This document shows positions 3,035 to 32,000 of a stretch of 32,000 nt of DNA, piece after piece. The stretch's first letter is position 1. Each line of letters begins with the position of its first letter. Below the pieces are notes generated by a model. It saw nothing but the letters and a program-made list of their open reading frames with translations. It was not told the origin of the DNA and did no database searches. This DNA is from Verrucomicrobiota bacterium. GTDB lineage: Bacteria; Verrucomicrobiota; Verrucomicrobiia; Chthoniobacterales; UBA6821. The DNA lies in the NCBI GenBank assembly GCA_008932965.1, contig WBXG01000011.1:3877-35876 (forward strand), given 5' to 3'. Position numbers and translations under genes: made by a program.

Positions 3035-3300
3035 TTAGACCAAATATTTCCTATCAATCACCTGCAGAAGCTAGGAAGCTAGGAAGCCAGGTCGATGCTG
3101 CATTAGACTCACATTGTGGCTTGAGCAGTATGTATGGCTACAGCCGTCTTCAAAATATGTGTCTGCGTTGACTCGCTCGCTCCCGCTCGTCTCGCCCTTT
3201 CAGGGCTGCCCCCTTAAAGCCAGGGCAGTCTCCACCGCGGTCTCCCGACCGCCGGTGGTTGCCCCATCAGTCTTGGCGGCCTCCTCTACCACGATCCATC
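3035..3300. repeat. MITE-like palindromic element, long variant with extra GC-rich modules (copy A)
   Basis: The left end TTAG-ACCAAATATTTCCTATCAATC resembles the family end TTAA-CCCGCATATTTCATACCGATC. The internal GGCTTGAGCAGTATGTATGGCTACAGCCGTC block is shared with other copies. 3167-3202 is identical to 31965-32000, and 3234-3256 is identical to 31610-31632. The right arm CCCCATCAGTCTTGGCGGCCTCCTC matches copies at 18198 and 13944. The right terminus is degenerate and overlaps the TPM gene 3' end. Confidence 0.5.
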
Positions 3301-4029
3301 AGCACCACCACCACCGCTCTCACCACCTCCCCCAGAAAAGCCGCCCCAATCATTACCACCACCAGTGCCTCCTCCAAGACCACCCCCTCCGATAAACCAG
3401 CCTCCACCGCCCCCATTTTTACCTCCAGAAGATCGCTTTTGAAAAAAAGAAATAATGATGATGAGTAAAAAAAACCCGATTGGAGAAAAGAGAAGCCTTT
3501 GCCAAGAAACGATTTGTTTCTTTTTTAAGGGGTTCTCGTTTTTATATTCCCCTGCTGTTGCTTTCATAATGGCATGGATGCCATCTAGGAGAGCTTGATT
3601 AGGGTTTCCTTGTTGAAAAAGAGGAGTCATTACCTCATCGATAATCTGCTTGCAAAGGGCATCTGGCAGTGCTCCTTCTAATCCATAACCAGTCTGAATA
3701 TGAATTTGATGCTCCTTCGCAAAGATGAGAAGTAAGACACCATTGCTATTTTTTTTCGTTCCCAAATGCCAGGTGCTATAAAGTTGTTGTGCATAATCAT
3801 CCAATGAAGTCCTGCTCGAAAATGTAGGTTCAATCACTACGACAATTTGATTCGAAGTCTGTTGATCAAAGCGTTCTAGTTGAGTATTGAGCTCCATAGC
3901 TACTTGAGGAGAGACCATACTGGCCTCATCATTAAAATAGTTTTTGGGTGATGGGGGTAATCCCTCTGCTCCTTGAAGAGGAATAAAACTCCATATTAGA
4001 AGAGCAAGAAAAAGGGTCAAGCGGGCCAT
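3286..4029 (-). CDS. TPM-domain (YgcG-like) membrane protein with a glycine-rich C-terminal tail
   Basis: Signal peptide MARLTLFLALLIWSFIPLQGA. A TPM-type core (YFNDEASMVSP...NQIVVVIEPT...GVLLLIFAKEHQIHIQTGYGLEGALPD). A TM helix (IGFFLLIIIISFF). A GGGGxxGGGG tail ending GSW. It lies next to a LemA gene, which is the classical pairing. Confidence 0.85.
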   Translation of the reverse strand: MARLTLFLALLIWSFIPLQGAEGLPPSPKNYFNDEASMVSPQVAMELNTQLERFDQQTSNQIVVVIEPTFSSRTSLDDYAQQLYSTWHLGTKKNSNGVLLLIFAKEHQIHIQTGYGLEGALPDALCKQIIDEVMTPLFQQGNPNQALLDGIHAIMKATAGEYKNENPLKKKQIVSWQRLLFSPIGFFLLIIIISFFQKRSSGGKNGGGGGWFIGGGGLGGGTGGGNDWGGFSGGGGESGGGGADGSW

Positions 4030-6703: not shown

Positions 6704-8560
6704 ATGGAACCCAAGAATAGGAATTCAGTTTCAGATCCCTGTTCTTTTCAGTACCGAGCTCCCATCGATCTTGAGATCGATGAAATCGAAATCAAAAATA
6801 TTCTGTTGCTTGGTTCCTGTTTGGCGAATTGCCTCTGGATGGGGTTGCACACTCATTTACCAACGCTCCGAGCGAAATATAAAATTGATCATTTGTTAAT
6901 CAACAACATCGCTCCCCTTCCTTCAAAATTGCCAAGACCGATCCAAGAGTACTCTTTTCAAATCATTCAGCCTCCACTGAGGACAGTTTTTCCCGAGAGT
7001 TTTTTTTTACGTTGTGATTATCAGGATACTAAAGCCGCTAAAAAAGCTTTTAAACAGTCGGTGAAGCTTCTTGAGTTATTTTTAGATAACGTTCTTCAAT
7101 ACCACAGAAAATATAGCCTCACCACCTTCATCACTAATTTTCTTGTACCTCAACAAAATCCCCTCGGAAGGCTTTTTCCTAAATATGACCTTAGGAATAT
7201 TCCCTTTTATGTGGAGGAACTCAATCGGCACTTATCAGCATTGATTGAAGAAAGAAACAATCTGTATCTTATCGATATCAACGAGATTGCGGCTAATTTT
7301 GGACGACGTTACATCCAAGATGATGTGCTCCATATCAGCAATCACGGATCGGTTGTGGAGGACTCTGATTTTGCATTCGATTTAAGACGTATCGAGAAGC
7401 CAACTCGCTTTTCCAAACAAAATGTTTTAAACACCTCTGGTTTTATCGATGCCATCATTCATGAAATTATCACTCATTATAAAATAGTCCGTCAGCATCA
7501 TTCTGTAAAAATTGTCATTTGTGATCTTGATGATACTCTTTGGCGAGGCGTGCTTGCAGAGGATGGGATCCATCTTGTGGGGCTGGAAGGCTGGCCCTTA
7601 GGTTTACTAGAAGCCCTTCTAGTTCTTAAAAAACGAGGTATTCTCCTTGCTATTGCGAGTAAAAATGAGGAGAAGCTGATCATTCAAAAATGGCCTGAGA
7701 TCTTTGGAGGTCACTTGCGGCTCGATGATTTTGTGGTTAGAAAAATTAATTGGAAGGAAAAGGCAGAGAATATTGGTGAGATTTTAAACGAGGTCCATCT
7801 TCTTTCAAGTAGTGCCTTGTTTATTGATGACAACCCTTTAGAGAGAGAAAAGGTGCAGCTTGCATTTCCTGAAATGAGAGTTCTAGGAGCCAACCACTAC
7901 ACATTAAGAAAAATTCTCCTTTGGGCTCCTGAATTACAAGTTCCCCAAATCACACATGAATCCCACCAACGCACGGAGAGTCTTAGAAAGAGAATCCCTC
8001 AAGCCAAACAGGGAATGAACATCAGTCGTAAAAAATTCTTAGATTCTTTAAAACTCAATATGGAATCCCTGAGGATAGATTCCATAGAGCATCCAGATTT
8101 TCCACGTGCTTATGAATTACTCAACAAAACGAACCAATTTAACACCACTGGCCAACGATGGAGATATGAAGAATGTCGCCTCTTCTTTGAAAAAAAAGGA
8201 TTTTTTGATGTTTTTAAAGTTAAGGATAAATTCACTAATTATGGATTAGTCGGGATTGTAGTGGTCAAGGATTACCATCTTGTACAAGTAGTCATGAGTT
8301 GCCGAGTAGTAGGGCTTGATTTAGAGAAGGGAATGCTTGTTCATGTGCTCAACCATGCCAATGGTCATCCTCTGACTGCCAATTTTATCAAGACAAAATC
8401 TAATCTTCTCTGCCATACCTTTTTTTCTGATTCGGGTTTCCTTAAAAACGGGAAAATGTGGTGCTATGATCCCCTTTCTAAAAAAAAATCAGCAAATCAC
8501 ATTTCTGTTGATACCATTCCCACGTGCAAAGGCGGAAAAGCTCATTCGGGCACGGCTTAA
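6704..8560 (+). CDS. FkbH-like HAD-superfamily (subfamily IIIC) phosphatase-domain protein with a C-terminal GNAT-like region
   Basis: HAD motif I ICDLDDTLWRGVL. Motif II-like LAIASKNEE. Motif III/IV-like FIDDNPLERE. Total size of about 620 aa and the trailing NKTNQFNTTGQRW block are typical of FkbH-domain proteins. Confidence 0.75.
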   Translation: MEPKNRNSVSDPCSFQYRAPIDLEIDEIEIKNILLLGSCLANCLWMGLHTHLPTLRAKYKIDHLLINNIAPLPSKLPRPIQEYSFQIIQPPLRTVFPESFFLRCDYQDTKAAKKAFKQSVKLLELFLDNVLQYHRKYSLTTFITNFLVPQQNPLGRLFPKYDLRNIPFYVEELNRHLSALIEERNNLYLIDINEIAANFGRRYIQDDVLHISNHGSVVEDSDFAFDLRRIEKPTRFSKQNVLNTSGFIDAIIHEIITHYKIVRQHHSVKIVICDLDDTLWRGVLAEDGIHLVGLEGWPLGLLEALLVLKKRGILLAIASKNEEKLIIQKWPEIFGGHLRLDDFVVRKINWKEKAENIGEILNEVHLLSSSALFIDDNPLEREKVQLAFPEMRVLGANHYTLRKILLWAPELQVPQITHESHQRTESLRKRIPQAKQGMNISRKKFLDSLKLNMESLRIDSIEHPDFPRAYELLNKTNQFNTTGQRWRYEECRLFFEKKGFFDVFKVKDKFTNYGLVGIVVVKDYHLVQVVMSCRVVGLDLEKGMLVHVLNHANGHPLTANFIKTKSNLLCHTFFSDSGFLKNGKMWCYDPLSKKKSANHISVDTIPTCKGGKAHSGTA

Positions 8561-9436
8561 AGGTTGTACCTCCTCTAGCAAAAGAGCTCCCTCTTTGCAG
8601 CAAAGAAGAATCTCTTGTTCCTCCGAGAGAAAAAAGGAGCCAGGTTGAGACTCCTTATTATGGGAGGGTCTCACTAGTGCAGAGAAAATTTTGAGCGCAC
8701 TTTTTTTTCCAGAAGGAAGGGTGACTACTCCATGGGCCCCTGGCTTTGGGTTCATGGCACGTATAAGGCGCTCTACTGCAATAGCAGAAGAGGACCAATC
8801 CAGAGCGGCATCCTCATAGTGGATGCGATGGGTGATGCTCCTTTCATTTTCAGTCTGAGGAAAACGAGGAGCAGATCCCTTTTTCAATAAATCCAATGCT
8901 TCTAAAAGAGCTATGGGAGAGAGCTCAGCAAGATGCTCACTCAACGTCCCAGAAGTTTCACGAGAAGTGATTGGGATTTTTTTTGTTAATAAAATATCTC
9001 CCGTATCTAAACCCTCATCCATGTACATAATTGTAATGCCACTATGAGTATCTCCAGCAATAATTGCCGATTGAATCGGGGAGGCACCACGATGTCGTGG
9101 CAAAAGAGAAGCATGAATGTTCAAGCAAGCATGAGTCGGTAACGTTAGAATCTCAGGGGGGACAATTTTACCATACGACATGGTTACGATCACATCGGGA
9201 TGTAAGGCTTGCAGGGAGTTAATAGCCTCAGCACTGCGTAGATTTTCTGGTTGAAGAATGGGTGCACCTGGGGCAATTTTTAAAAAGGATTCTTTGAGTG
9301 CAGGCGGTTTGAGCTCTTGATGACGTCCTACTAGCCTATCAGGCTGCGTTAATAAACCGATAAGTTCATAGTGAAGTGCAACGGCTCTCATTGCTTGTTC
9401 TCCAATACTACTCGTGCCAGCAAAAAGAATACGCAT
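8489..9436 (-). CDS. fmt: Methionyl-tRNA formyltransferase
   Basis: MRILFAGTS N-terminus. Formyltransferase active-site block NIHASLLPRHRGASPIQSAIIAGD. C-terminal EVQP...M.A.AF.RG domain. Confidence 0.9.
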   Translation of the reverse strand: MRILFAGTSSIGEQAMRAVALHYELIGLLTQPDRLVGRHQELKPPALKESFLKIAPGAPILQPENLRSAEAINSLQALHPDVIVTMSYGKIVPPEILTLPTHACLNIHASLLPRHRGASPIQSAIIAGDTHSGITIMYMDEGLDTGDILLTKKIPITSRETSGTLSEHLAELSPIALLEALDLLKKGSAPRFPQTENERSITHRIHYEDAALDWSSSAIAVERLIRAMNPKPGAHGVVTLPSGKKSALKIFSALVRPSHNKESQPGSFFLSEEQEILLCCKEGALLLEEVQPLSRARMSFSAFARGNGINRNVIC

Positions 9437-10273: not shown

Positions 10274-10301
10274 TATAAAGGGAATAATTTTGAGAGTTCA
10301 C

Positions 10302-10483
10302 TTCGCTCGCCTATTTCATACTGATTCTGAAACACCTTGCTAGGGCCTGATGTATACTCTTTCTGGATCGAATGCTCCTCGAGCAGTTTGCCTCACACAG
10401 TGGTTGTCAGGCTTCATCGCTCGCTTTGTCCTATCAGCATTGGCCTTCTCATCGTCACAATCAGTGCGATATATCAGGGGATA
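10302..10483. repeat. MITE-like palindromic element, 182 bp, diverged (copy C)
   Basis: Left end CTCGCCTATTTCATACTGATTC. The internal CTCCTCGAGCAGT block matches CTCCTCGGGCAGT of copy L. The right arm is CCTATCAGCATTGGCCTTCTCATCGTCACAATCAGTGCGATATATCAGGG. It starts 28 bp upstream of the adk start codon. Confidence 0.65.
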
Positions 10484-10647: not shown

Positions 10648-11622
10648 ATGTTTAACAAGAAATCCCCTTCTTCTCGTCATCATCTCCCTGATTTTTCGAT
10701 TGGCCACTGGCGTCTAGATATGGTGACGTTCATCATCGGCATTCAGGGTGTCTTCATGGTTCTTACCGCCACCCTCATAAGCCTAGGTCATACTTCCTGG
10801 GTCAATGCCCTTTGCTATAATAGTGCTGGCGTTTGGCATGGACAGGTGCTGCGTCTCGTTACCTATGCCTTTGTAAATCCTCCAAGCCTTTGGTTCGCAC
10901 TAGAGATGCTCATGCTTTATTACTTTGGCCGTGAAGTAGAAAAAATCATTGGACCCCGTAGGTTTGCTACACTTTATATAGGGCTCATTCTTCTTGGTTC
11001 ATGCTTGCTACAGCTATTAAGTCTCTCAGGAGTATCAGAAAGGATGAGTGGAGCTCAGTCGGTACATTTTGCCATCTTTACTGCTTTTGTAGCAATATAC
11101 CCAGGGCTGCCATTTTTGTTTGGCATTGCAGCACGGTGGATGTTGGCTGTTTTCCTAGTCCTTTCTACACTTCAGTTTTTAGAGGGACATCAATTCGCAT
11201 CACTGGTGATTTTTTTATCAGAATCAGTGGCCGCCATCTTTTTTATGATAGTGCAAGGATATCGTGATTTACTTCCTCAAAATGGGATCTCCTTTCTCTC
11301 TCGCTATTCACACTATTTCGCTTTTTTTCGTAAGGGTTCAAAAGTTTCCTCCCCTGTTTCTCAAGGATCAGCGAGCTCTTCTTCCAACAACTCTGTTTTG
11401 GAGGCTTTCTCTACAACCACTTCATTTGTTCCAATTTTTGCAAATCAAAAACCTGCTGAGAAAACAGCACCAACGCCTCGTCCACTAGCAATCAACATTG
11501 ATGCTTTACTTGAAAAAATTAGCCAAGCGGGTATGGAAAGTCTCACTTCCAAGGAAAAAGAAGAGTTAGAAAAAGCAAGTAGTGCCCTTGTAGAGCGTGA
11601 TCGCATAGTGATTGGATCATGA
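10648..11622 (+). CDS. Rhomboid-fold membrane protein (divergent) with a soluble C-terminal tail
   Basis: About six hydrophobic helices. Rhomboid-like block LRLVTYAFVNPPSLWFALEMLMLYYFGREVEKIIGPRRFATLYIGLILLG, followed by RMSGAQSVHFAIF. It has a Ser-rich linker and a helical tail (IDALLEKISQAGMESLTSKEKEELEKA). Confidence 0.6.
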   Translation: MFNKKSPSSRHHLPDFSIGHWRLDMVTFIIGIQGVFMVLTATLISLGHTSWVNALCYNSAGVWHGQVLRLVTYAFVNPPSLWFALEMLMLYYFGREVEKIIGPRRFATLYIGLILLGSCLLQLLSLSGVSERMSGAQSVHFAIFTAFVAIYPGLPFLFGIAARWMLAVFLVLSTLQFLEGHQFASLVIFLSESVAAIFFMIVQGYRDLLPQNGISFLSRYSHYFAFFRKGSKVSSPVSQGSASSSSNNSVLEAFSTTTSFVPIFANQKPAEKTAPTPRPLAINIDALLEKISQAGMESLTSKEKEELEKASSALVERDRIVIGS

Positions 11623-13415: not shown

Positions 13416-14639
13416 ATGGCTCAACGATCTCCCTCCTCTGTCCTGCTCATCAAGCTACGGCATCATGGAGATGTCCTTCTTGCTACACCGGTTGCCAGAG
13501 TGTTAAAGGCTCAGTTTCCCAATTGTCAGATCGATTTTCTCGTCTACGAAGGAACAGAGGCACTGCTAGAACACAATCCTGATCTACGTCAGGTTTGGAT
13601 CTGGCATCGAGCGGCCCGTGGGTGGAATCGTCTTAAAAAGATCCTTCATCTTTTTTTTCAACTACAGCACCAGCATTACGACTTGGTGATCCATCTTTCC
13701 GACCAGATGCAGGGGGCATTATTGGCAGCGCTTTTAAGGCCGCACCAATCTATTGGTATTGACTATCCCAAACGTCGTCATTTTTTTTGGAGCTCCTGCT
13801 TTACAACATTAGTTCCTCTGTTTCCAAGTAACACTCATCATACTGTAGAACAAAATCTAGCTACTCTAGCAGCAGTATTTCATGCTAGTCATGACACCAT
13901 AGGTGAGAGTACACACTCGTCAAGGAGGGCTTCGAGTTCAACACCCCATCAGCCTTCACAGCTTCCTCGTTACGATCAGTATGAATTATCCGGTCCAGAG
14001 ATAATTTTCAACAAGAGGTTCGTTCCCGAATCCCCCAATCACATGACGGATCCTATGTTGAGATGCCGATTGGTTATTAGCCAAGAAGACCGCTTATTTA
14101 TTCAAGAGCAGCTTCAAAAAACCTCATTTTCCACTCCCTATCTTCTCATTCATCCAACAGCACGCTGGTTTTTTAAGTGCTGGGAAGAGGAGTCCTTTGC
14201 AAAACTCATCGCCCATTTTGCCAATCAAGGCTGGTCTATTCTGTTAACCTCTGGCCCGGCCGTTGAAGAGCAAGCTATGGTTGCTACAATTTTAGAGAAA
14301 GTTCATTCCGACCGCATCTACTCACTTGCAGGTCAGTTAACATTAGGTCAGCTTGCAGCAGCAATTGAAGGAGCCACTCTTTTTATCGGTGTTGATTCTG
14401 TCCCAATGCATATGGCTGCAGCATTAGAGAAAGATGTCGTTGCTCTTTTTGGTCCAAGTAAAATCAATGAATGGCATCCTTGGATGACCCGCTATCACCT
14501 AGTGAAAGCCTCTGATTATGGTGATTTGATTGATCCAGATGATGTAAGAACAGAGACAGTAGTGCGCTATCTCTCTATGATTCCGGTGGAGGAAGTTATT
14601 TCAAAAGTTGAACAAATGTTACACCTTTCTTACTCGTAG
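13416..14639 (+). CDS. waaQ: GT9 LPS heptosyltransferase, heptosyltransferase III (WaaQ/RfaQ)-like, carrying an in-frame MITE-derived insertion
   Basis: VLLIKLRHHGDVLLATPVARVLKAQFPNCQIDFLVYEGTEALLEHNPDL is the KLRHHGD-type N-terminus of heptosyltransferase III. The C-terminal block is LFIGVDSVPMHMAAALEKDVVALFGPS. It is 407 aa, against 365 aa for the other GT9 in this window. The extra segment is encoded by 13866-13998. Confidence 0.85.
   Translation: MAQRSPSSVLLIKLRHHGDVLLATPVARVLKAQFPNCQIDFLVYEGTEALLEHNPDLRQVWIWHRAARGWNRLKKILHLFFQLQHQHYDLVIHLSDQMQGALLAALLRPHQSIGIDYPKRRHFFWSSCFTTLVPLFPSNTHHTVEQNLATLAAVFHASHDTIGESTHSSRRASSSTPHQPSQLPRYDQYELSGPEIIFNKRFVPESPNHMTDPMLRCRLVISQEDRLFIQEQLQKTSFSTPYLLIHPTARWFFKCWEEESFAKLIAHFANQGWSILLTSGPAVEEQAMVATILEKVHSDRIYSLAGQLTLGQLAAAIEGATLFIGVDSVPMHMAAALEKDVVALFGPSKINEWHPWMTRYHLVKASDYGDLIDPDDVRTETVVRYLSMIPVEEVISKVEQMLHLSYS
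13866..13998. repeat. MITE-like element copy inside the heptosyltransferase CDS (copy D), read through in frame
   Basis: CTAG-CAGCAGTATTTCATGC is the left end. GGGCTTCGAGTTCAAC is an internal block, as at 5166-5180. CCCCATCAGCCTTCACAGCTTCCTCGTTACGATCAGTATGAATTATCCGG matches the right arm of copy E (18198-18247) closely. Confidence 0.7.
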
Positions 14640-15773: not shown

Positions 15774-16198
15774 AAAAATGATTGACTAGCCTTTTTTCGT
15801 TTTAGCATCATAGAAAAGATGTACAAACCAAGTATCCAAGAACATTTATCGCTGATATCACTGTCACTACCTTTTACAGTTATATCTTGCATGGTACTGT
15901 TCTTCTTTCATCCCTGTAAATTAAGTCACGAGCGAATGTGATTGCGTTCGACGGAACGCCATTAAAAAGAGGGATTTTATCCATTACTGGCTTCGTATTT
16001 AAACGAATCTATTAATCCCTACCGTTCAAAATTCATCTGATTAAGTCAATCAATCGTGTTGATCGTTAGTGAAATACTAATTTTCTTCCTTTCCTTTCTC
16101 ACTTGTTAGCAACGGAATGCTTGCTACCACTGACCAGGAGTCATGGTGCATTTTCATATCACAAAAAAACAATACTAATCCCTTTCAATATTAACAAA

Positions 16199-18070
16199 AT
16201 GTCTGCTTTAACTCAAAATTCATCCCCTAAATTCAATCTCCAGGTAGAAAGAAAAAGGCCTGTATGCTCTTCATGGCTAGCGCACAGATCGCTTCTTTTC
16301 ATAGCATCCTTATGGAGTATAGGGAGCGCCTCTGCTATTTTTATGATACTATTTTCTCAATCTCTCCATGCGCAGGAAATAGATCCAAAAACCGATCCTA
16401 TTGACACTGAGCTTTCAGGGCCACTTGCCGTAATTCCAGAAATGATCTCTGTGGAAGATGCTGGAAATCTCGCTGATCCTATTACTGGATTGGGCGCGGT
16501 ACAAGAAGCATTCCACATCGGAAAATACCCTGTAACTAATTTACAATGGACAACTTTTCTCAATGCTGTGCACGTTGTTGAGCAAAATCCTGAAGATCCC
16601 CGCAATCTTTATCATGAGGAGATGTTTCAGAAAAATATTGGATCTGCTCCCTTATCTAAGTTAACCGATGTTATAAGAACCAGAATTGATGCAACCAATT
16701 TTCTAGGTCACAAGATCACGGTTTTTTTCCCAAAAGACTGGGGAACTCCCTTAGGACACTATTTTGGTTCGCTTCCTGTGACAGGAATAAGCCTAGATGA
16801 CTGTAAGCGCTATCTCAATTGGTTACATCATGGGGCTCCAGATTTTTTAACCTTATGTCGAAAAGACCCATCGTTAGATCCCTTTACTTTAAGTGAAAAG
16901 CTCTTAGCTATAACAGAAACTGGAGCCTATGATTTTACAAATGGCAAAAATGGAGAGCTTATGGAAGGAGCGCGCTATTTTCTCCCTAATTTAAATCAGT
17001 GGTACAAGGCTGCTTACCATTACGGTGGAACAACAGATGCTACCTACTGGTCTTATCCTACTCAAAGCAATAAATTACCAACTCAAAGCAATAAATTACC
17101 AACTCAAACAATCATCCTTGAACTCTTCAAAAATCCTTCTAGTGCTAAAACAGGAGCTAATTTTGCACAAGTTTTTTATAATTATAAACGATATTATATA
17201 GATGGATGTTATGACATGGAGCATTTATTTAGTGATGAAACCATGCCTTCAAAAGAAAATGAATATTATCTTGCAACACCTGTCGGTTTTTTCACAGATT
17301 CACCCAGCTCTTATGGAACCTATGATCAAGGAGGAAATGTAAGAGAATGGACGAGCGATTCTGTAATAACGTTGCAAGGAGAAGAAATGATTGCTCCAGG
17401 AGGATCATTTGAAGAGTCCAGTGATCAATTATTAAGCACTAATGCAAACAAAAAATCTTTTCCCCCGTCCTGTAGAATTAAAACTATCGGTTTAAGAGTA
17501 TGCTCATTAGCGACTGTTGGTAATCTTAACAAAGATCCAATTTTGTCAGATGCTGCCTCGAACTCCCTTAACAGTTCCTTAATTCTTCAGTCATTTACAA
17601 ATGTAGCCATTGCACAAACGACAGCTTATGGTCTTGAAGCTGCTTTAGCAGTTGGTATTAAATATGTTAATACGGGAAGGATAATGACTCTGAGTGAAAT
17701 AGTGCGCCCTTTTACCTATCAGCGAAATATTGTAAATGGTATCTTAAGTGTTGTTCTTGTCATGGGTGAAACAGGTCGAGCAACAGTGGCTCCAATAAAA
17801 AAAGAGGACTTATGGAATATAGGATTCGTTGTTGCCTCTACCATAGCTACGATGCTCCTGACTGAAGGTTCTGCTTTCTTTGTTGAAGCCGCCGTAGGAG
17901 AAGTGCTCAACCTGCTCAAAAACTCTAATTTGATCACAATGACAGTTCAAAATAGCGTTACTGAATTAGCATGGCCCAGATTGATTACCAACATGTGGTA
18001 CATTGGCCTGAATACTTATCTGACAACAAAATCAGATTTAAAATATTTTGAAGAACAACAACTCAATTAA
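16199..18070 (+). CDS. FGE-sulfatase/SUMF1-domain protein with an N-terminal TM anchor and a hydrophobic C-terminal region
   Basis: TM helix LLFIASLWSIGSASAIFMILF. FGE-domain blocks HIGKYPVTNLQWTTFLNAV, GISLDDCKRYLNWL, YGTYDQGGNVREWTSD and IGLRVC. The last 170 aa or so contain several hydrophobic stretches (ILSVVLVMG, IGFVVASTIATMLL). The ATG at 16199 is preferred over the TTG at 16103. Confidence 0.75.
   Translation: MSALTQNSSPKFNLQVERKRPVCSSWLAHRSLLFIASLWSIGSASAIFMILFSQSLHAQEIDPKTDPIDTELSGPLAVIPEMISVEDAGNLADPITGLGAVQEAFHIGKYPVTNLQWTTFLNAVHVVEQNPEDPRNLYHEEMFQKNIGSAPLSKLTDVIRTRIDATNFLGHKITVFFPKDWGTPLGHYFGSLPVTGISLDDCKRYLNWLHHGAPDFLTLCRKDPSLDPFTLSEKLLAITETGAYDFTNGKNGELMEGARYFLPNLNQWYKAAYHYGGTTDATYWSYPTQSNKLPTQSNKLPTQTIILELFKNPSSAKTGANFAQVFYNYKRYYIDGCYDMEHLFSDETMPSKENEYYLATPVGFFTDSPSSYGTYDQGGNVREWTSDSVITLQGEEMIAPGGSFEESSDQLLSTNANKKSFPPSCRIKTIGLRVCSLATVGNLNKDPILSDAASNSLNSSLILQSFTNVAIAQTTAYGLEAALAVGIKYVNTGRIMTLSEIVRPFTYQRNIVNGILSVVLVMGETGRATVAPIKKEDLWNIGFVVASTIATMLLTEGSAFFVEAAVGEVLNLLKNSNLITMTVQNSVTELAWPRLITNMWYIGLNTYLTTKSDLKYFEEQQLN
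17060..17108 (+). repeat. 21-bp in-frame tandem duplication (2.3 units) inside the FGE-domain CDS
   Basis: ACTCAAAGCAATAAATTACCA is repeated exactly twice and followed by ACTCAAA. It encodes PTQSNKL PTQSNKL PTQ. Confidence 0.9.
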
Positions 18071-18251
18071 CCCGTATGTTTCATCCCGATCTACTGCGTA
18101 GATCGGGAAGTCATATGGATGCTGCGTTAGACTTGCATTTTGATTTGGGCAGTATGTACAACATACAGCCCTGCATCAAAATGCTCGCCTGCCTTACCCC
18201 ATCAGCCTTCGAGGCCTCCTCGTTACGATCATTATGAAATATGCGAGCTAG
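18067..18251. repeat. MITE-like palindromic element, 185 bp (copy E)
   Basis: TTAA-CCCGTATGTTTCATCCCGATC at the left end and GATCATTATGAAATATGCGAG-CTAG at the right. The internal block is GCTGCGTTAGACTTG...GGGCAGTATGTACAACATACAGCC. The TTAA contains the stop codon of the plus-strand FGE-domain gene. The CTAG contains the stop codon of the minus-strand hexapeptide transferase gene. Confidence 0.85.
18084..18108. repeat. Perfect 10-bp inverted repeat (hairpin, 5-nt loop) inside copy E
   Basis: TCCCGATCTA-CTGCG-TAGATCGGGA lies 14 nt after the FGE-domain gene stop codon. No U-tract follows, so I am not calling it a canonical intrinsic terminator. Confidence 0.6.
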
Positions 18252-18919
18252 CGTGCAAGAATCTGGTACTCCTCTTGCTTTTTTACAATGCTTTTTTCAG
18301 GTAGGATCCCATGCCATGAGACCATAGGATAGATTAAGCTCTCCCTTCCAATAATTGATCCTGGGCTCAATACAGCATTGCATCCAATTTCAACATAATC
18401 ACCAAGAATAGCACCAAATTTTTTGAGGCCAGTGGAAATTTTGAGGTTCTCTATTTTGATGATAATTTCCTGCCGATCTAATCGGACATTAGAAAGAATA
18501 ACACCTGCCCCAAGATGAGCACGGTAGCCTAAAATAGAATCGCCAACATAGTTAAAATGGGGGACCTGGACTTCATCAAAGAGGAGTGAATTTTTTAATT
18601 CACACGAGTTTCCAATAACCGAATTATTTCCAACAATAACATTTTCTCGAATATAACACCCTTTACGCAACTGACATCCTTCCCCAATCCAGGCAGGACC
18701 TAGAATTACAGCCCCCTCCTCAATAATGGTATTTTTCCCAATAAAGACATTTTTTCCAATATAAGAATTTCCATTCTTAATTCCATAATTTGCTGGAGTG
18801 AGGTAATCAGCAAGATAAGAAGAAATATTGGAAAGAATCTCCCAGACTCGCGAATTTCTGTTGATCAAAATCTGATGATCTGTATGGCGAAGATCAAGGT
18901 AAGCATTAGGATGAAACAT
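18248..18919 (-). CDS. Left-handed beta-helix (hexapeptide-repeat) transferase, sugar nucleotidyl/acyl-transferase-like
   Basis: Long run of hexapeptide repeats (IGKNVFIGKNTIIEEGAVILGPAWIGEGCQLRKGCYIRENVIVGNNSVIGNSCELKNSLL...VGDSILGYRAHLGAGVILSN). The ATG at 18919 (MFHPNAY) is preferred because the 19024 start would overlap the upstream GT9 gene by 50 bp. Confidence 0.65.
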   Translation of the reverse strand: MFHPNAYLDLRHTDHQILINRNSRVWEILSNISSYLADYLTPANYGIKNGNSYIGKNVFIGKNTIIEEGAVILGPAWIGEGCQLRKGCYIRENVIVGNNSVIGNSCELKNSLLFDEVQVPHFNYVGDSILGYRAHLGAGVILSNVRLDRQEIIIKIENLKISTGLKKFGAILGDYVEIGCNAVLSPGSIIGRESLIYPMVSWHGILPEKSIVKKQEEYQILAR

Positions 18920-18974
18920 AGAATTTAAAGGTACTGTATGAGGGCTGTTTGTTAGGAAAATAAACGAGATTATT

Positions 18975-20072
18975 TTATTTTTTAAAATGAAGTATCCGCT
19001 CCATTGCATCAAAAACTTTTTCAAAAGATATCTGACTCATCTCACTAAGCTGAGGATCTTTTTGTTTAAGTAGAAGTTCTTTTTCAGGCTTGGCAAGTTC
19101 GATGATTTCATGGCCCGGGGTATTGTCTAGTGGACCATACATACTAGTGGGGCTGCGGTAGTGGAGTAGCGCAAGAGTGGGGCAACCCACTGCAAAACCA
19201 AGATGCATCACGCCAGTATCTGTGCTCACAAGCATGGAAGCCTCCTTGAGGAGTGCGGCTGTCTCCTCTAAGGTTGTTTTTTGAACAAGATTGATGACCC
19301 AAGGAGTTGCTTTTTCAATAGCTATTCCTACCTCGTAATTGTCATGCCCCCCCGTTAAAATGATCTGATGAGGATATCTCTCCTTAAACCATCTGATGGC
19401 GTGAATATAAGATTCTACGGGCCAGTTTCGCCAGGAGAGTGTTTTACCTCCTCCTGTTTGAAAAATAATAAAAGGTTGTTTTAAAGCAGGGTGGTGTTGG
19501 TAGAGAAGTTTTACCTCCTCCTCCCTTACCTGATAAACCATACCTCGATCGACCTTTGCCCCACCGGCGGCAGTAGCTACTTTCAAGATTTCTTTCACAA
19601 TATGGGGTTCATCTTTCGTAACCACTGGATGTGAGAGAAGGAAGGAAAAACGTTGACAGCGCTCCACAGCGCCGAAAAAAGCATGTCGATTCAAAAGGTA
19701 TCCTAGTGGAACCGCCTCTTCATTGACATGCAGGGCAACAACTAGATCTGGTTTACTATTTCGAAAGTGCTGTAAAAGCTTGAATTGAGAAAGAGGCGAT
19801 TTACTCAGTGGAAGGACTTCATCTACGAATGGATGGTGACGTGCTACTGACCCACGTCGATGGTGTGCTGCGACAATGAGTTTGGACTGAGGATACCCCT
19901 TTTTTAAACTTTTTATTGCTGCTGAATCAAAAAGACTATCTCCAATTCCAGTTGTGCTAAAAACTAAAATGAGTTTAGGGTTCTTTGGGAGGGGCCATGG
20001 AACTGGTGGGAAGACCAATGCAAGAAGACGAAAAAAATGCTCATTAAAAAATCGAGTAATCTTGTTCCACAT
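18975..20072 (-). CDS. GT9 glycosyltransferase (ADP-heptose:LPS heptosyltransferase family)
   Basis: KLILVFSTTGIGDSLFDSAAIKSLKKGYP N-terminal block. C-terminal LVSTDTGVMHLGFAVGCPTLALL block typical of GT9. Confidence 0.85.
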   Translation of the reverse strand: MWNKITRFFNEHFFRLLALVFPPVPWPLPKNPKLILVFSTTGIGDSLFDSAAIKSLKKGYPQSKLIVAAHHRRGSVARHHPFVDEVLPLSKSPLSQFKLLQHFRNSKPDLVVALHVNEEAVPLGYLLNRHAFFGAVERCQRFSFLLSHPVVTKDEPHIVKEILKVATAAGGAKVDRGMVYQVREEEVKLLYQHHPALKQPFIIFQTGGGKTLSWRNWPVESYIHAIRWFKERYPHQIILTGGHDNYEVGIAIEKATPWVINLVQKTTLEETAALLKEASMLVSTDTGVMHLGFAVGCPTLALLHYRSPTSMYGPLDNTPGHEIIELAKPEKELLLKQKDPQLSEMSQISFEKVFDAMERILHFKK

Positions 20073-21821: not shown

Positions 21822-21887
21822 TTAACCCGCATATTTCATACTCATCACGGCCTCCTCGTCACGATCAGTATGAAATATCTGGGCTAG
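21822..21887. repeat. Mini (66-bp) derivative of the MITE-like element (copy F)
   Basis: TTAA-CCCGCATATTTCATACTCATCACGGCCTCCTCGTCACGATCAGTATGAAATATCTGGG-CTAG. Both termini are near consensus and almost all interior sequence is missing. Confidence 0.85.
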
Positions 21888-22033: not shown

Positions 22034-22217
22034 TTAACTCGAATATTTCATACTCAATCCTTGCGGCTTGGGGAAAGCTCATTGTCACTGTGCTGGTCTC
22101 GATTGCGAGTGGGGAAGTAGGGCTCCTGCAGCCCCGCATCACAATCTTTCTCCCTCCTTGTACTAATAAGCTTTGCACGGCGCCTCATGACGCTTCAGTA
22201 TGAAATGCTCGGATTAA
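22034..22217. repeat. MITE-like palindromic element, 184 bp (copy G)
   Basis: TTAA-CTCGAATATTTCATAC at the left end and CAGTATGAAATGCTCGGA-TTAA at the right. The internal block is GCGGCTTGGGGAAAGCTCATTGTCACTGTGCTGGTCTCGATTGCGAGTGGGG, shared with copy H. It ends 60 bp before the mreB start. Confidence 0.85.
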
Positions 22218-27080: not shown

Positions 27081-27264
27081 TTAACCCGCATATTTCATAC
27101 CGATCTATTACGGCTTGTGGAAAGCTCATGATTACTGCGTTGGTCTCGAATTGTGATTTGGGCGGTATGTACTCATACAGCGGTCGTCGCAATCCATCAC
27201 CTTCCATGTCATCATCAGAATTCGCTGCGCTTCGTGACGAACCAGTATGAAATAGGCAGGCTAA
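27081..27264. repeat. MITE-like palindromic element, 184 bp, near-consensus ends (copy H)
   Basis: TTAA-CCCGCATATTTCATACCGATC at the left end and ACCAGTATGAAATAGGCAGG-CTAA at the right. It starts 4 nt after the mrdA stop codon. Internal blocks CTGCGTTGGTCTCGAATTG and GGCGGTATGTACTCATACAGCGGTCGTCGCAATCCATCACCTTC are shared with copy L. Confidence 0.9.
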
Positions 27265-27414: not shown

Positions 27415-29013
27415 ATGACAGCCCCTACTACTTTGAATATTATCGATACTGTAAAACGTTTTTTAGGCGTTAAGAAAAATGGGCCCAGAGTTAAACTCAT
27501 TATTAGTTCTGAAAAGCTCGAGACAAGGGTCGCACTCATGGAAGATGGTCTGCTTGAAGAGTACTCGATAGAACGTGATAGCGACCGAAATATCGTAGCC
27601 GGTATTTTTAAAGGAAAAGTTCGCAATATTGAGCATGGATTGAAAGCCATGTTTGTGGATATTGGTTTTGAAAAAAATGCCTTCTTGCATTTTTGGGATG
27701 CTGTGCCGGCAGCCCTTGACAGTGGTATTGAAGCTGTCCATCGCGGTAAAAACCAACAGGCTAAGAAAAAAATTACAGCTAAAGATATTCCATCCATTTA
27801 TCCAATTGGATCAGAGGTGATGGTTCAGGTGACAAAAGGCCCTATTGGAACCAAAGGACCACGTGTCACCACCAATATCAGTCTTGCTGGGCGCTACATG
27901 GTGCTTATGCCATTTAATGATCAATGTGGTATTTCACGCAAAATTGAAGACCCTAAAGAGCGCTTACGCCTTCGTGATATTCTCACCAACTTAGAATTAC
28001 CAGAGGGTATGGGGATTATTATTAGAACAGCGGGAGAGGGACAGCGGGCACGTTTCTTTGTACGTGATCTCCATTTTTTACTCGATCAATGGGGTTGTGT
28101 GGAGGAGGGGATGAAAACAAAACCAGCTGCAAGTACGTTGATGCTGGAGCCAGATTTGATTGCCCGTACAGTACGTGATTTTCTTACAGATACCGTTGAT
28201 GAGGTTAATATTGATGACCTTGGTGAGGCAGAGAGGATGCAATCACTTGTGGCACCTATTTCAAAACGTGCTCGCAAGCTAATTCATTATTATAGCGGGG
28301 CAAAACCAATTTTTGATCATTTTGGAGTTCAAGAGCAGATTGATAAAGCCTTTCTGCGCCAGGTTTGGCTTCCCTGCGGAGGATACCTTGTCATTGATGA
28401 AACTGAAGCGATGATCACCGTCGATGTCAATACCGGTCGTAACAAAGGAAGCAAAGATATGGAAAAAACGTTGCTTCAAACAAATCTTGAAGCCGTTGAT
28501 GAAATTGCTCGTCAACTTCGACTCCGAAATATTGGAGGGCTTATTGTCTGTGATTTTATCGATATGAAAAGCCGGAAAGATCAGCAGGCGGTCTATCAAC
28601 GTATGAAGGAACGACTCAGGCGTGATAAGGCTCGCACCCATGTCTTGCCGATCTCTGCATTGGGGCTGATGGAAATGACCCGCCAGCGTGCTCAGGAGAG
28701 TATTTCAAGCACCCGCTACACCCATTGTCCTTATTGTGGAGGCAAAGGTATTATTAAAAGTATGATGACCATGAGTGTAGAATTACAACGTGCCCTTCAC
28801 ACCTTAATGAAGCGTCATCAAGATGATATTCATGAATTTAAAGTTACTGTTCATCCTGAGTTGCTCCATCGTTTGCGTCATGAAGATGATGAGCTCCTAG
28901 CCGATATACAACGTCGTTATGCCGCTTGCTTAACATTCCGTGCCGATCCTGCTATTCATCTAGAGAAATTTGTCATAACGAACGCTGTTACGAGCGAAGA
29001 ACTAACAGTGTAA
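27415..29013 (+). CDS. rng: Ribonuclease G/E family endoribonuclease
   Basis: S1 domain (IVAGIFKGKVRNIEHGLKAMFVDIGFEKNAFLH). Catalytic blocks (LVIDETEAMITVDVNTG, GGLIVCDFIDM). Zn-link CPYCGGKG. It lies downstream of the mre genes, as in enterobacterial mreBCD-...-rng. Confidence 0.9.
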   Translation: MTAPTTLNIIDTVKRFLGVKKNGPRVKLIISSEKLETRVALMEDGLLEEYSIERDSDRNIVAGIFKGKVRNIEHGLKAMFVDIGFEKNAFLHFWDAVPAALDSGIEAVHRGKNQQAKKKITAKDIPSIYPIGSEVMVQVTKGPIGTKGPRVTTNISLAGRYMVLMPFNDQCGISRKIEDPKERLRLRDILTNLELPEGMGIIIRTAGEGQRARFFVRDLHFLLDQWGCVEEGMKTKPAASTLMLEPDLIARTVRDFLTDTVDEVNIDDLGEAERMQSLVAPISKRARKLIHYYSGAKPIFDHFGVQEQIDKAFLRQVWLPCGGYLVIDETEAMITVDVNTGRNKGSKDMEKTLLQTNLEAVDEIARQLRLRNIGGLIVCDFIDMKSRKDQQAVYQRMKERLRRDKARTHVLPISALGLMEMTRQRAQESISSTRYTHCPYCGGKGIIKSMMTMSVELQRALHTLMKRHQDDIHEFKVTVHPELLHRLRHEDDELLADIQRRYAACLTFRADPAIHLEKFVITNAVTSEELTV

Positions 29014-29039
29014 CGATCATGATGAAATATTCGGGTTAT
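29011..29039. repeat. 29-bp right-end stub of the MITE-like element
   Basis: TAA-CGATCATGATGAAATATTCGGG-TTAT matches the family right end (ACGATCAGTATGAAATATGCGGG-TTAA). It begins with the rng stop codon. Confidence 0.5.
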
Positions 29040-29067: not shown

Positions 29068-29937
29068 ATGAAATTCTCACTAGCATCTAATCTGATCCTC
29101 TCTTCCTCAGAGTGGCAAATGATCATTTGTATGGGTGCAAGTCTCTGGCTTCTTTTTGAAGTATGGAGAGGATGGCAGCTCGGTTTTTTTCGAGGATTAT
29201 TAAAATTTCTGGCACTTATTGTAGCTTGGTTTGCAGGTTCAACAATAGTTGCAACACTGAGCACGCTATTTATTTTTTTATTTCACACTTCATCCTCACT
29301 GATTTCCTCAGTGGTTGGAGTTTCGGTAGGAATCATTATTTATTTCATTGTAAATTTCTTATCGGCGCTCCTTTTCAAAAAAACAAATCATTACCGAGGC
29401 TTTCTTCGAGGCCTCTTTGGAATTGGTGGAGCTTGTTGGGGGTTGTTGTTTGGTCTCTTTTTTATTTGGGGAACTATTTCTCTCATACGCAGCTTAGGTC
29501 TTGTTGGGGAGATGCGACTTTTGAAAGCGGAGCAACAAGGGCTTCCAGCGGTGAGTGACCCATTAGCCTGCAACCTCGTACGTATTAAAAAATCAATAGA
29601 GCTTGGCCCGCTCGGAGTCTGGTTTGTTCAAGTAGATCCGCTGACCTCTGCATTCTATGCAAACACAAAAAAAAGCATGATTCTACTTCAGGATCATGAT
29701 GCCTTTATTCGTTTTATGAATGCTCCAAACACACAGGAGCTTTTAGCTCAACCTCTCATGAAAAAAATGATCAATGATCCTCAGGTTCAACAAGCTATTT
29801 CTTCGGGAAATCTTTTTCAACTTGTCAAAAATAAAAATGTACAGCAAGCCTTGAGTGATCCAACCCTGTGGAAGCAATTAAAATCCTTTGATCTCTCTAC
29901 CGTCCTGAATCAGGCCTGTAAACAAGGTGAAGAGTAA
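29068..29937 (+). CDS. cvpA: CvpA-family membrane protein with an extended soluble C-terminal region
   Basis: N-terminal pattern LWLLFEVWRGWQLGFFRGLLKFLALIVAWFAG, followed by three or four further TM helices, is CvpA-like. The C-terminal 140 aa or so are hydrophilic. Confidence 0.6.
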   Translation: MKFSLASNLILSSSEWQMIICMGASLWLLFEVWRGWQLGFFRGLLKFLALIVAWFAGSTIVATLSTLFIFLFHTSSSLISSVVGVSVGIIIYFIVNFLSALLFKKTNHYRGFLRGLFGIGGACWGLLFGLFFIWGTISLIRSLGLVGEMRLLKAEQQGLPAVSDPLACNLVRIKKSIELGPLGVWFVQVDPLTSAFYANTKKSMILLQDHDAFIRFMNAPNTQELLAQPLMKKMINDPQVQQAISSGNLFQLVKNKNVQQALSDPTLWKQLKSFDLSTVLNQACKQGEE

Positions 29938-29980
29938 TGGGTAATGGGTAATGGGTAATGGGTAATGGGTAATGGGTAAT
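29935..29980. repeat. Heptanucleotide microsatellite (TAATGGG) x 6 plus a partial unit
   Basis: Perfect tandem TAATGGG units at 29935-29976 followed by TAAT. The first unit contains the cvpA stop codon. The array ends 95 bp upstream of the gatB start. Confidence 0.9.
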
Positions 29981-30074: not shown

Positions 30075-31568
30075 GTGCATCTAGAAAAAACCCCTCCATA
30101 CCTTGTCACTATTGGGCTTGAAGTGCACGCTCAGCTCAAAACCAAAACAAAAATGTTTTGCTCCTGCCCCGTGGAATATGGAGCTGAGCCCAATACTCAT
30201 CTCTGTCCCGTCTGTTTAGGACATCCAGGGGCTCTTCCTGTTATTAACAATGAGGCGCTTTGCTTGACAACATTAGCTGGCCTGATGCTTTCATGCGACA
30301 TTCCACCTGTCTGTAAGTTTGACCGCAAAAATTATTTTTACCCTGACATGCCCAAAAATTATCAGATTTCACAGTTTGATAAACCGTTGTGTCTCGGTGG
30401 TGCTGTTCCCCTGCATGAGCGGGCTTATCCTAAAGAAATTCAGAAAACCCCATTGGCTGAAGAAAAACAGATTCGTCTTACTCGGATCCATCTTGAAGAA
30501 GATGTTGCTAAAAGTTTTCATTTCGAGTCAACCAGCGGTATTGATTTTAATCGTGCTGGAACTCCCCTTATTGAAATCGTCTCTGAACCCGATATCACTT
30601 CACCAGAAGAAGCTTTTGCTTACCTAACGGCCCTCCGCCAAATTTTAATTTATGGTAATATCAGTGATGCTGATATGGAAAAAGGGCAGATGCGTTGTGA
30701 TGTGAATGTCTCCATACGCCCTCTGGATCAAAAAGAATTTGGGACAAAAATCGAATTAAAGAATCTGAATAGTATTAGTGGTGTCCGTCGTGCTTTAACC
30801 TATGAGATTGAGCGTCAGAGAGGCCTTCTTTCACAGGGAGAAAAGCTCTCTCAAGAAACACGCCGTTGGGACGATGATCGTGGTGAAACAACATTGATGC
30901 GTATGAAAGAATCAGCACATGACTACCGCTATTTTCCAGATCCTGACTTACTTCCTATTCATACCGAAGAGCTAGTTAGCATAGCAAAAAAAAGAATGCC
31001 TGAGTTGCCACAAGTAAAGTGTGCGCGCCTGATCAATGAGTGCGAATTAAGTCCCTATGATGCCGCAGTTCTTACCGAGGATCATGCTCTTGTAAACTAC
31101 TTTGAAGAAGCCATGCGTCTCTCCTCTCAAAAAGTCCGTCCTAAGATTCTTGCAAATTGGATTATCAATGATCTTTTGAGTGCTTTAGGGACGGCCTCCC
31201 TAAGTGTTAAGGAATCACCCATTACTCCGGAAGCCCTTGTGGAGTTGACTTCGTTGATTGAGCAAGGAGCTATTAGCGGGCGTCAAGGAAAAGAGGTTTT
31301 TGCAGAAATGATGAGCAGTCAAAAAAGCCCATCCTCGATCGTTGAGGAAAAAGGTTTACAACAAGTCAGTGATAGTGGTGCTATTGAAGGCTTCTGCGAC
31401 AGCGTTATTGAAGCAAATCCATCAGTGGTCGCAGATTTCAAAGCAGGTAAGGAGGCAGCCTTGAATTTTCTCAAAGGACAGGTCATGAAACTTTCTAAAG
31501 GCAAAGCAAATCCTGCGCTTGCTGGAGAAATCTTGTTAACCCGGATATTGCATACTGATGGTGATTAG
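30075..31568 (+). CDS. gatB: Aspartyl/glutamyl-tRNA(Asn/Gln) amidotransferase subunit B
   Basis: GTG start. IGLEVHAQLKTKTKMFCSC, CPVCLGHPGALPV, NYFYPDMPKNYQISQ, RIHLEEDVAKS, RCDVNVS, DYRYFPDPDL, and the C-terminal GatB/YqeY domain (FLKGQVMKLSKGKANP). Confidence 0.95.
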   Translation: MHLEKTPPYLVTIGLEVHAQLKTKTKMFCSCPVEYGAEPNTHLCPVCLGHPGALPVINNEALCLTTLAGLMLSCDIPPVCKFDRKNYFYPDMPKNYQISQFDKPLCLGGAVPLHERAYPKEIQKTPLAEEKQIRLTRIHLEEDVAKSFHFESTSGIDFNRAGTPLIEIVSEPDITSPEEAFAYLTALRQILIYGNISDADMEKGQMRCDVNVSIRPLDQKEFGTKIELKNLNSISGVRRALTYEIERQRGLLSQGEKLSQETRRWDDDRGETTLMRMKESAHDYRYFPDPDLLPIHTEELVSIAKKRMPELPQVKCARLINECELSPYDAAVLTEDHALVNYFEEAMRLSSQKVRPKILANWIINDLLSALGTASLSVKESPITPEALVELTSLIEQGAISGRQGKEVFAEMMSSQKSPSSIVEEKGLQQVSDSGAIEGFCDSVIEANPSVVADFKAGKEAALNFLKGQVMKLSKGKANPALAGEILLTRILHTDGD

Positions 31569-31692
31569 AAAGCCAAGAAAGTTGATGGGGTACCACCGGC
31601 AGTCCGAAGACCGCGGTCTCCCGACCGCCGGTAGTGTATGCATCAGGATTCGCTGCGCCTCACAACGAATCAGTATGAAATATGCGGGCTAG
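31536..31692. repeat. MITE-like palindromic element, 157-bp variant with a GC-rich module (copy K)
   Basis: TTAA-CCCGGATATTGCATACTGAT at the left end and GAATCAGTATGAAATATGCGGG-CTAG at the right. The interior contains ACCGCGGTCTCCCGACCGCCGGT, identical to 3234-3256. The left 33 bp form the last codons and stop codon of gatB. Confidence 0.85.
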
Positions 31693-31840: not shown

Positions 31841-32000
31841 CTAGCCCGCATATTTCATACCGATTCTGCTGCGGCTTGCGAACACCTGATGGATACTGCG
31901 TCAGTCTCGAATTGCTCCTCGGGCAGTATGAAACATACAGCCGTCGTCGCAATCCATCACCTTCGTTGACTCGCTCGCTCCCGCTCGTCTCGCCCTTTCA
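31841..32000. repeat. MITE-like palindromic element, long variant, truncated by the window edge (copy L)
   Basis: CTAG-CCCGCATATTTCATACCGATTC at the left end. The interior parallels copy H (GCGGCTTGCGAA..., GTCTCGAATTG, GGCAGTATGAAACATACAGCCGTCGTCGCAATCCATCACCTTC). It then continues with the 36-mer GTTGACTCGCTCGCTCCCGCTCGTCTCGCCCTTTCA, also found at 3167-3202. Confidence 0.85.

Follow-up and report, generated by a model that had tools for sequence, protein, structure and literature searches.

The 32-kb stretch of Verrucomicrobiota contig WBXG01000011.1 analysed here (hereafter the window, with positions counted from its first nucleotide) carries a cluster of envelope-sugar genes. One of these genes, at 13416-14639, encodes a 407-aa putative lipopolysaccharide (LPS) heptosyltransferase III of glycosyltransferase family GT9, and its open reading frame (ORF) runs uninterrupted across a short sequence, 13866-13998, that has the ends of a dispersed repeat. 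The window holds at least 10 copies of this repeat, bounded by YTAR-CCCGCATATTTCATAC ... GTATGAAATATGCGGG-YTAR, and nucleotides 13866-13998 read CTAG-CAGCAGTATTTCATGC ... GTATGAATTATCCGGT-CCAG (133 nt, or 129 nt and 43 codons after subtraction of one 4-nt flank). [quoted passage not shown] Here we describe the host gene, the insert and its family, and weigh this proposal against its alternatives.

A GT9 heptosyltransferase with an interdomain insert

The host gene was assigned by family model and fold, and its activity is predicted. The protein matches PF01075 (Glyco_transf_9) in two separate stretches (1.7e-41; 142.6 bits against a cut-off of 22), and TIGR02201 ('putative LPS heptosyltransferase III') likewise in two stretches, with 419 bits against a cut-off of 170. 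Its nearest database proteins come from metagenome-assembled genomes (MAGs) of Verrucomicrobiae and Chthoniobacterales, and a megablast search of the gene against plasmids gave no matches. The above-cut-off TIGR02201 match and the GT9 GT-B fold are shared with LPS heptosyltransferase III (WaaQ/RfaQ), from which the protein differs in that its interdomain linker holds 43 inserted residues and in that it scores below the cut-off of the enterobacterial RfaQ equivalog, NF007742.

An AlphaFold2 model of the 407-aa protein, built on the orthologue alignment, had a mean predicted local distance difference test score (pLDDT) of 83.5 and a predicted TM-score (pTM) of 0.82. When searched with Foldseek, the model matched the GT-B/GT9 fold, with 3tov, 1psw and WaaC at target-normalised TM-scores of 0.77-0.86. 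Residues 161-209 were the sole segment with pLDDT below 50, and the flanks were mostly above 85. The insert comprises residues 152-194, the first eight of which (H152-159) were modelled as a helix continuation. Since the predicted disordered segment separates two confident halves, the insert would sit between the N- and C-terminal Rossmann-like halves, in a disordered loop at the GT-B interdomain linker, the position proposed earlier. All 71 invariant columns of the orthologue alignment are kept in the window protein.

The insert is a diverged member of the repeat family

A profile was built from five intergenic copies, with the ORF copy excluded, and searched with nhmmer. It detected the right arm of the insert (13946-13995) with E=2.7e-7. 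Over 50 nt, this arm shares 86% identity with 18196-18245, so the initial description of it as 'nearly identical' to an intergenic copy was too strong. The left arm alone was undetected by the profile, and the left boundary was therefore taken from the empty-site comparison below. Over the full 133 nt, a global alignment with the consensus of the 180-nt copies gave 93 identities in 122 positions (76%), with z=12 against 500 shuffles. Membership of the family, with both ends present, is thus upheld, the left end being degenerate (about 10 of 16 matches). The element body plus one duplicated target copy adds 129 nt, corresponding to residues 152-194 (AAVFHASHDTIGESTHSSRRASSSTPHQPSQLPRYDQYELSGP), and the peptide tail PHQPSQLPRYDQYELSG aligns with the family peptide PHQPSRPPRHDQYEISGL. 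Junction peptides predicted for the 407-aa form include LATLAAVFHASH, YELSGPEIIFNK, NLATLAAVFHASHDTIGESTHSSR and YDQYELSGPEIIFNK.

Compared with the modal element, the ORF copy lacks a net 51 nt (17 codons), and the hairpin predicted for its RNA is on a par with shuffled sequence (z=-0.7). The degenerate left end, the lost hairpin and the net shortening therefore indicate an old and decayed copy. An Rfam scan of the window returned no families, introns and ribozymes included, and a search of the window for other intragenic palindromes found none that was convincing.

Orthologues show the empty site

We aligned the window protein with 26 orthologues (27 sequences), which are typically 345-374 aa long. 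Among those below 99% identity, none carries the 43-aa segment, and the alignment shows the clean gap of about 43 aa that the first-pass annotation had anticipated. In nucleotides, the window has ACT CTA G / 125 nt / CCA G / AG ATA ATT where the two closest insert-free orthologues (L092 and L001) have ACC CTC GAA/CAA AAG/AAA ATT ATA. Removal of 129 nt from the window sequence leaves ACT CTA GAG ATA ATT (T-L-E-I-I), against T-L-E-K-I-I in L092, consistent with an in-frame gain of 43 codons across which the ORF stays open. The filled site is bounded by CTAG ... C(T>C)AG in the window, compared with a single CTNG in L092 and L001, and these CTAG/CCAG flanks would fit a 4-nt duplication followed by one later transition.

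L001 is the Chthoniobacterales MAG Tobar2m-G38, in which 20 kb hold at least 8 family copies, including one directly downstream of the orthologue. Lack of the element hence does not account for the empty site in L001, and no orthologue from a genome lacking the family was seen to carry a homologous segment there. In L001, two family copies (18017-18380) lie head to tail and share the tetranucleotide between them (CTAA, 18197-18200); the same frame is open in both, immediately upstream of a lipoprotein-like ORF.

The insert also persists in the population. A 99%-identical variant of the gene was found on 15 contigs from several runs, samples and assemblers and encodes 407 aa in all of them, and the 13866-13998 sequence recurs in independent NCBI, JGI and Logan assemblies. 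The variant differs from the window at 12 nucleotides of the gene: nine in the 1091 nt outside the element (6 synonymous, 3 non-synonymous) and three in the 133 nt inside it (1 synonymous, 2 non-synonymous). This pattern is consistent with a working gene whose passenger is under weaker constraint, with 12 differences being too few for a formal test.

The repeat is a MITE with IS1380-type ends

We measured 30 well-defined copies, drawn from the window, from L001 and from about 80 metagenome loci that the terminal repeat had retrieved, a sample biased to contigs with a perfect terminal repeat. Copies are 66-213 nt long and hence could hold no transposase ORF. The modal insertion is 180 nt (176 + 4), or 60 codons, in 11 of the 30 copies, and 16 of the 30 are multiples of three. 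The flanks are TTAA, CTAA, CTAG or TTAG (YTAR). The family is dispersed, with 102 copies in 517 kb of related contigs.

A candidate autonomous partner was found at L093 (1170-3415), an element of 2.25 kb whose 25-nt terminal repeats are perfect and start with CCCGCATATTTCATAC and which encodes a 492-aa IS1380 transposase (PF13701, 3.4e-133; NF033539, 2.4e-106). At least 12 of the approximately 80 loci retrieved by the terminal repeat encode an IS1380 transposase beside it. Because the terminal repeats are common to both, we consider the repeat a MITE of an IS1380-family element. It resembles IS1380-family insertion sequences in its ends (identical over the first 16-19 nt), its CC termini and its probable 4-nt flanking duplication, but differs in having no transposase, in being 176 nt rather than about 2.2 kb and in an interior that is unrelated beyond the ends. 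IS1380 elements typically have CC ends and generate a 4-5 bp duplication. As the partner is IS1380-like, we prefer a 4-nt YTAR duplication to a 2-nt TA duplication of the IS630/Tc1 type. The window feature is accordingly classed, on these sequence features, as a MITE: it is short, has terminal inverted repeats and a target-site duplication, and belongs to a set of dispersed copies with the ends of an autonomous element. Its mobilisation would have occurred in trans, by an IS1380 transposase. An IS5-family origin was first suspected from the CTAG target and was rejected once the transposase had been typed as IS1380.

The family consensus is compatible with coding

The consensus of the 180-nt copies has no stops in the frame starting at the Y of the left YTAR in either orientation, and the other frames have 1-5 stops. 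It translates as LTRIFHTD...PHQPSRPPRHDQYEISGL in the forward direction and as LTRIFHTDRDEE...GDRYEICGL in reverse. Since xxY-TAR is a stop, YTAR can occur within a gene only as YTA-Rxx or xYT-ARx. Therefore, insertion of the stop-free unit at YTA-Rxx adds 60 codons, and the protein is lengthened without truncation. The ORF copy has the forward orientation and the frame in which YTA encodes Leu.

Stop depletion was assessed by aligning 23 copies to the consensus and comparing new stops with a uniform-mutation model (1000 simulations). Forward frame 0 had 10 new stops against 32.1 expected (observed/expected 0.31; none of the 1000 simulations was as low). The ratios were 0.85 and 0.96 in forward frames 1 and 2, and 0.71, 1.78 and 1.17 in reverse frames 0, 1 and 2. 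This is suggestive of selection maintaining the open forward frame 0, given related copies and a crude mutation model. A further step would be that the family is kept translatable by selection and not merely tolerated, as the 60-codon unit, its freedom from stops in both directions and the three-fold stop depletion among mostly intergenic copies might indicate; we hold this tentatively, at slightly worse than even odds. If true, the repeat would be an evolved 'gene-compatible' transposon of free-living bacteria, an RPE analogue with a known transposase family (IS1380), target and insertion frame, and protein-coding selfish DNA would become open to experiment.

Insertions recur in the same linker and in other genes

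The heptosyltransferase linker has been struck more than once. In the orthologue P0030, a 100-nt CTAG...CTAA copy (L087, 748-847) adds 96 nt in the same orientation and frame as the window copy, with z=7.9 against the consensus and a hairpin at z=-4.4. Its insertion site lies two codons downstream of that in the window, where L006 has a single CTAG (CCA CTA GGT). Judging by these sequences, the L087 insertion is independent of the window insertion.

Inserts of other kinds occupy the same enzyme. In the same linker, L002 (10445-10542) carries an in-frame, near-perfect 98-nt hairpin of another family (z=-10), with partial copies elsewhere in the contig. A second loop, after residue ~292, holds an in-frame element with CTAAGAACCTGTATTCATG terminal repeats in L089 (~8755-8915; hairpin z=-4.8), with related copies in four other loci. 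The second loop also holds an in-frame insert with the repeat TTAGACTTCTTACGAAACTC in L088 (~7120-7262; hairpin z=-5.0) and a weaker in-frame insert in L090 (~10748-10885), the hairpin of which is insignificant. For the L088 and L090 inserts no further copies were seen in the sequence sampled, and their inverted repeats suggest possible mobility. The presence of three other palindromic families in the same two loops of one enzyme suggests that the habit is widespread in Chthoniobacterales.

Across the 517 kb, 8 of the 102 copies have at least 150 nt of open frame on either side. Four of these are clear full-length, in-frame insertions, with both orientations used. They lie in PheT (L099), between the tRNA-binding and B3/4 domains; in a GlnD-type uridylyltransferase (L102), between ACT domains; in RNase HII (L149), with the Pfam domain split at profile position ~35; and in a 478-aa ORF of no recognised family (L134). 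The intragenic fraction is about 5% of the 102 copies sampled, a rough figure because the sample is biased to contigs with perfect terminal repeats. All intragenic copies found are stop-free and a multiple of three in length.

When the consensus peptide was used to query a word-indexed protein search, all matches were short hypothetical ORFs and the long hosts were missed. An exhaustive profile search of 1.84 billion representatives gave 198 protein clusters, most of them short ORFs on intergenic copies. Internal matches included aldose 1-epimerase (domain split), a DR2241/Fer4_23 protein and 5-formyl-tetrahydrofolate cyclo-ligase. N-terminal matches, which may be mis-called starts, included dehydroquinate (DHQ) synthase, shikimate kinase and type I dehydroquinase. 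P0208 (576 aa) has a repeat copy as the join between a Vut_1 transporter domain and an FtsX permease domain. It is either a true gene fusion mediated by the open element or the outcome of read-through of an intergenic copy, which merged two genes. Many 45-110-aa 'hypothetical proteins' among P0121-P0294 (locus tags K9M81_, QE493_ and DVB29_, from Chthoniobacterales and Verrucomicrobiae MAGs) are translations of the repeat, and in many of them a conserved internal Met (MDAAL...) serves as the start. Unless the repeat truly encodes a peptide, these entries are probably artefacts of annotation.

An old in-frame insertion and its alternatives

We propose, with a probability of roughly 0.88, that 13870-13994 is an old IS1380-type MITE copy that inserted at a CTAG in the linker codons of the GT9 heptosyltransferase III gene, which is still translated as 407 aa. 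A transposase acting in trans would have placed the MITE at the CTAG in the interdomain-linker codons and duplicated that tetranucleotide. As the consensus is stop-free in the YTA = Leu frame, insertion at this YTA-Rxx site would have lengthened the protein. The peptide gained is rich in Ser, Pro and His and is predicted to be disordered and in a surface linker, so the enzyme may tolerate it and selection would not have purged the copy. A later in-frame loss would account for the net 51 nt and for most of the hairpin potential, and the gene is most probably still translated into an enzyme with a 43-residue passenger loop. The proposal builds on what is established above: the segment belongs to the family and is flanked by a duplicated target, orthologues have the site empty, the frame is open and the insert persists in the population, disorder is predicted, the family is linked to IS1380 and insertions recur in other genes.

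Several points weigh against the proposal. With its weak left terminal repeat and shuffle-level hairpin, the ORF copy could no longer be mobilised. The tetranucleotides on the two sides are identical in just 14 of the 30 delimited copies, and the flank statistics fit either a 4-nt YTAR or a 2-nt TA duplication. It was the terminal repeat itself that led to the IS1380 elements, which lie in contigs with a G+C content of 0.53 versus 0.42, and a partner resident in this genome is hypothetical. The stop-depletion test rests on a uniform mutation model and on related copies. Finally, we infer the transcription and translation of the insert, and likewise its neutrality, from sequence.

Alternatively, the insert may have been co-opted, with the 43-residue loop kept by selection as a longer hinge between the Rossmann-like domains or for contact with the membrane or a partner. 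Fixation in 15 of 15 contigs of the 99% variant, the modelled helix extension over the first eight residues and the independent hits on the same linker in L087 and L002 would all fit this. However, divergence is higher and mostly non-synonymous inside the element (3 of 133 nt, 2 non-synonymous, against 9 of 1091 nt with 3 outside; small numbers), the segment is predicted to be disordered, the closest orthologues function without it, and CTAG sites in a permissive loop also explain recurrent insertions. We therefore consider co-option unlikely.

A pseudogene, or a gene untranslated through the element whose open frame is a coincidence of recent insertion, is quite improbable. A run of 43 codons would stay open by chance about 10% of the time, but the copy is old (24% diverged, internally deleted and without its hairpin), yet its frame is open in two variants. 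There is no sign of decay, an untranslated pseudogene being one of the findings that the first-pass annotation had named as refuting it: all 71 invariant residues are kept, substitutions outside the element are mainly synonymous (6 against 3) and the TIGR02201 score is far over the cut-off.

Removal of the element after transcription or during translation (intron-like, by bypassing or intein-like), leaving a mature enzyme without the insert, appears very improbable. It could draw on the strong RNA hairpins of younger in-gene copies (L087, z=-4.4; L002, z=-10; L088, z=-5.0; L089, z=-4.8), but removal would not require stop-free multiples of three, yet all intragenic copies are both; the window has no Rfam intron or ribozyme match and the hairpin of the ORF copy is lost. 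That the segment is an ancestral, fast-evolving linker resembling the repeat by chance, or an assembly chimera, is scarcely credible: the linker region does vary among orthologues, but the nucleotide similarity is significant (E=2.7e-7, z=12), its peptide agrees with translations of the family, the breakpoints coincide exactly with CTAG and the same sequence is found in independent NCBI, JGI and Logan assemblies.

Relation to known in-frame elements

An old MITE insertion that remains in frame resembles what is described for RPEs. Like them, the family consists of multicopy palindromic repeats of ~100-180 nt, a sizeable minority of which lie in frame inside unrelated housekeeping genes, and the insert encodes a recognisable family peptide at fold-compatible loops and linkers. 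In contrast to the obligate intracellular Alphaproteobacteria that carry RPEs, the host belongs to free-living freshwater Chthoniobacterales, and a YTAR duplication, terminal repeats and a candidate autonomous partner of the IS1380 family are identifiable. The intragenic fraction is also lower, about 5% of 102 copies versus about half for some RPE families (Ogata et al. 2000, 2002, as summarised in PMC10969869). Because the phylum of the host, Verrucomicrobiota, is a different one, we describe the element as working like an RPE and do not file it as a member; a sequence relationship to RPE-1 to RPE-10 is not expected.

The element also resembles enterobacterial repetitive intergenic consensus (ERIC) and other enterobacterial small mobile sequences (Delihas 2007), Coxiella QMITE1/2 and Anabaena MITEs, which are non-autonomous, have terminal inverted repeats and show occasional in-frame fusions or C-terminal extensions. 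In Coxiella, most in-frame cases of QMITE1/2 affect hypothetical proteins or the ends of genes (PMC5896051). In the present family, full copies interrupt defined domains or linkers of PheT, GlnD, RNase HII and GT9, and the consensus is open in both orientations. A 2024 review describes in-frame MITE fusions as 'not unusual', with RPEs as the extreme case (PMC10969869). Therefore, the RPE-like behaviour first suggested for the insert is supported by the in-frame copies in other genes, whereas the accompanying remark that such tolerance is rarely reported elsewhere was overstated. Among the papers searched, we found none tying RPE-like elements to Verrucomicrobia.

The properties of the family, namely its coding compatibility and recurrence, are of more interest than the single insertion. 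To our knowledge, in-frame selfish DNA in essential genes is a textbook oddity known almost solely from Rickettsia, where the mobilising enzyme and the insertion mechanism are unknown. RPE-like behaviour now appears in abundant free-living freshwater Verrucomicrobia, with a defined target (YTAR, Leu-Xxx), a 60-codon unit and an IS1380 partner family. This offers a tractable system for studying how a transposon can come to spare coding sequence, how frequently such passengers give rise to new loops or linkers in proteins and what protein sites accept them. For annotation, 'hypothetical proteins' that appear to be translations of the repeat make up at least 198 clusters in public MAGs, and length outliers among orthologues in the clade are worth checking for such inserts.

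Other copies and neighbouring features in the window

The features of the window are listed in Table 1. RNA hairpins of several intergenic copies reached z=-3 to -7, and three others were near zero.

Table 1. Host gene, parts of the in-gene element and other family copies in the window
Feature	Position	Strand	Basis
Host gene, 407-aa GT9 putative LPS heptosyltransferase III (WaaQ-like)	13416..14639	+	PF01075, TIGR02201, AlphaFold2 fold
Left 4-nt target duplication copy, CTAG; CTA = Leu151	13866..13869	+	Empty-site comparison with L092 and L001; family flanks YTAR
Element body, 125 nt, forward orientation, open frame of the family	13870..13994	+	Consensus alignment and peptide match
Degenerate left terminal inverted repeat CAGCAGTATTTCATGC (consensus CCCGCATATTTCATAC)	13870..13885	+	~10/16 matches, core TATTTCAT intact
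Right terminal inverted repeat GTATGAATTATCCGGT (consensus GTATGAAATATGCGGG)	13979..13994	+	Inside nhmmer match 13946-13995
Right target duplication copy, now CCAG (one T-to-C change); CCA = Pro194, G begins Glu195	13995..13998	+	
Full-length copy, 180-nt insert, TTAA/TTAA	5056..5239	-	nhmmer
Family copy	10301..10482	+	nhmmer E=2.5e-41
Intergenic copy closest to the ORF copy in the window, 181-nt insert, TTAA...CTAG	18067..18251	+	nhmmer E=2.2e-45; hairpin z=-5.8
Full-length copy, 180-nt insert	22034..22217	+	nhmmer
Full-length copy, 180-nt insert	27081..27264	+	nhmmer
Shorter copy, 153-nt insert	31536..31692	+	nhmmer
66-nt mini-copy, the two terminal repeats only	21822..21887	+	Strong hairpin, z=-6.9
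Shorter or variant copies	3036-3297 and 31842-end		
Solo element end	29010-29038		

The sequences at 3036-3300 and 31842-32000 are larger variants with an extra G+C-rich module, CTCGCTCGCTCCCGCTCGTCTCGCCCTTTCA, that is 98% identical between the two. This module is adjoined by the palindrome ACCGCGGTCTCCCGACCGCCGGT, which is likewise present in 31587-31635, and the variants may be composite or nested elements.

Several family copies coincide with gene ends. The copy at 18067-18251 lies exactly between the convergent ORFs 16103-18070 (+) and 18248-19024 (-), and its flanks hold both stops: TTAA supplies the TAA of the forward gene, and CTAG, read on the minus strand, supplies the TAG of the reverse gene. 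The location of both stops in the flanks suggests that the two genes shared a stop, or overlapped at it, that the copy inserted there and that the duplication restored both stops. Three other ORFs end in family copies or a solo repeat: 30075-31568, whose final ~11 codons are element-derived (copy 31536-31692), 27415-29013 (29010-29038) and 3286-4029 on the minus strand (3228-3297). Repeat-supplied C-terminal tails and stops therefore seem common.

Two further repeats were noted in neighbouring genes. The forward ORF 16103-18070 encodes a 655-aa FGE-sulfatase-domain protein with a perfect tandem duplication, PTQSNKL-PTQSNKL. At 29926-29980, from the stop codon of ORF 29068-29937, the heptanucleotide GGGTAAT is repeated in tandem in about seven units, a possible slippage-prone tract.

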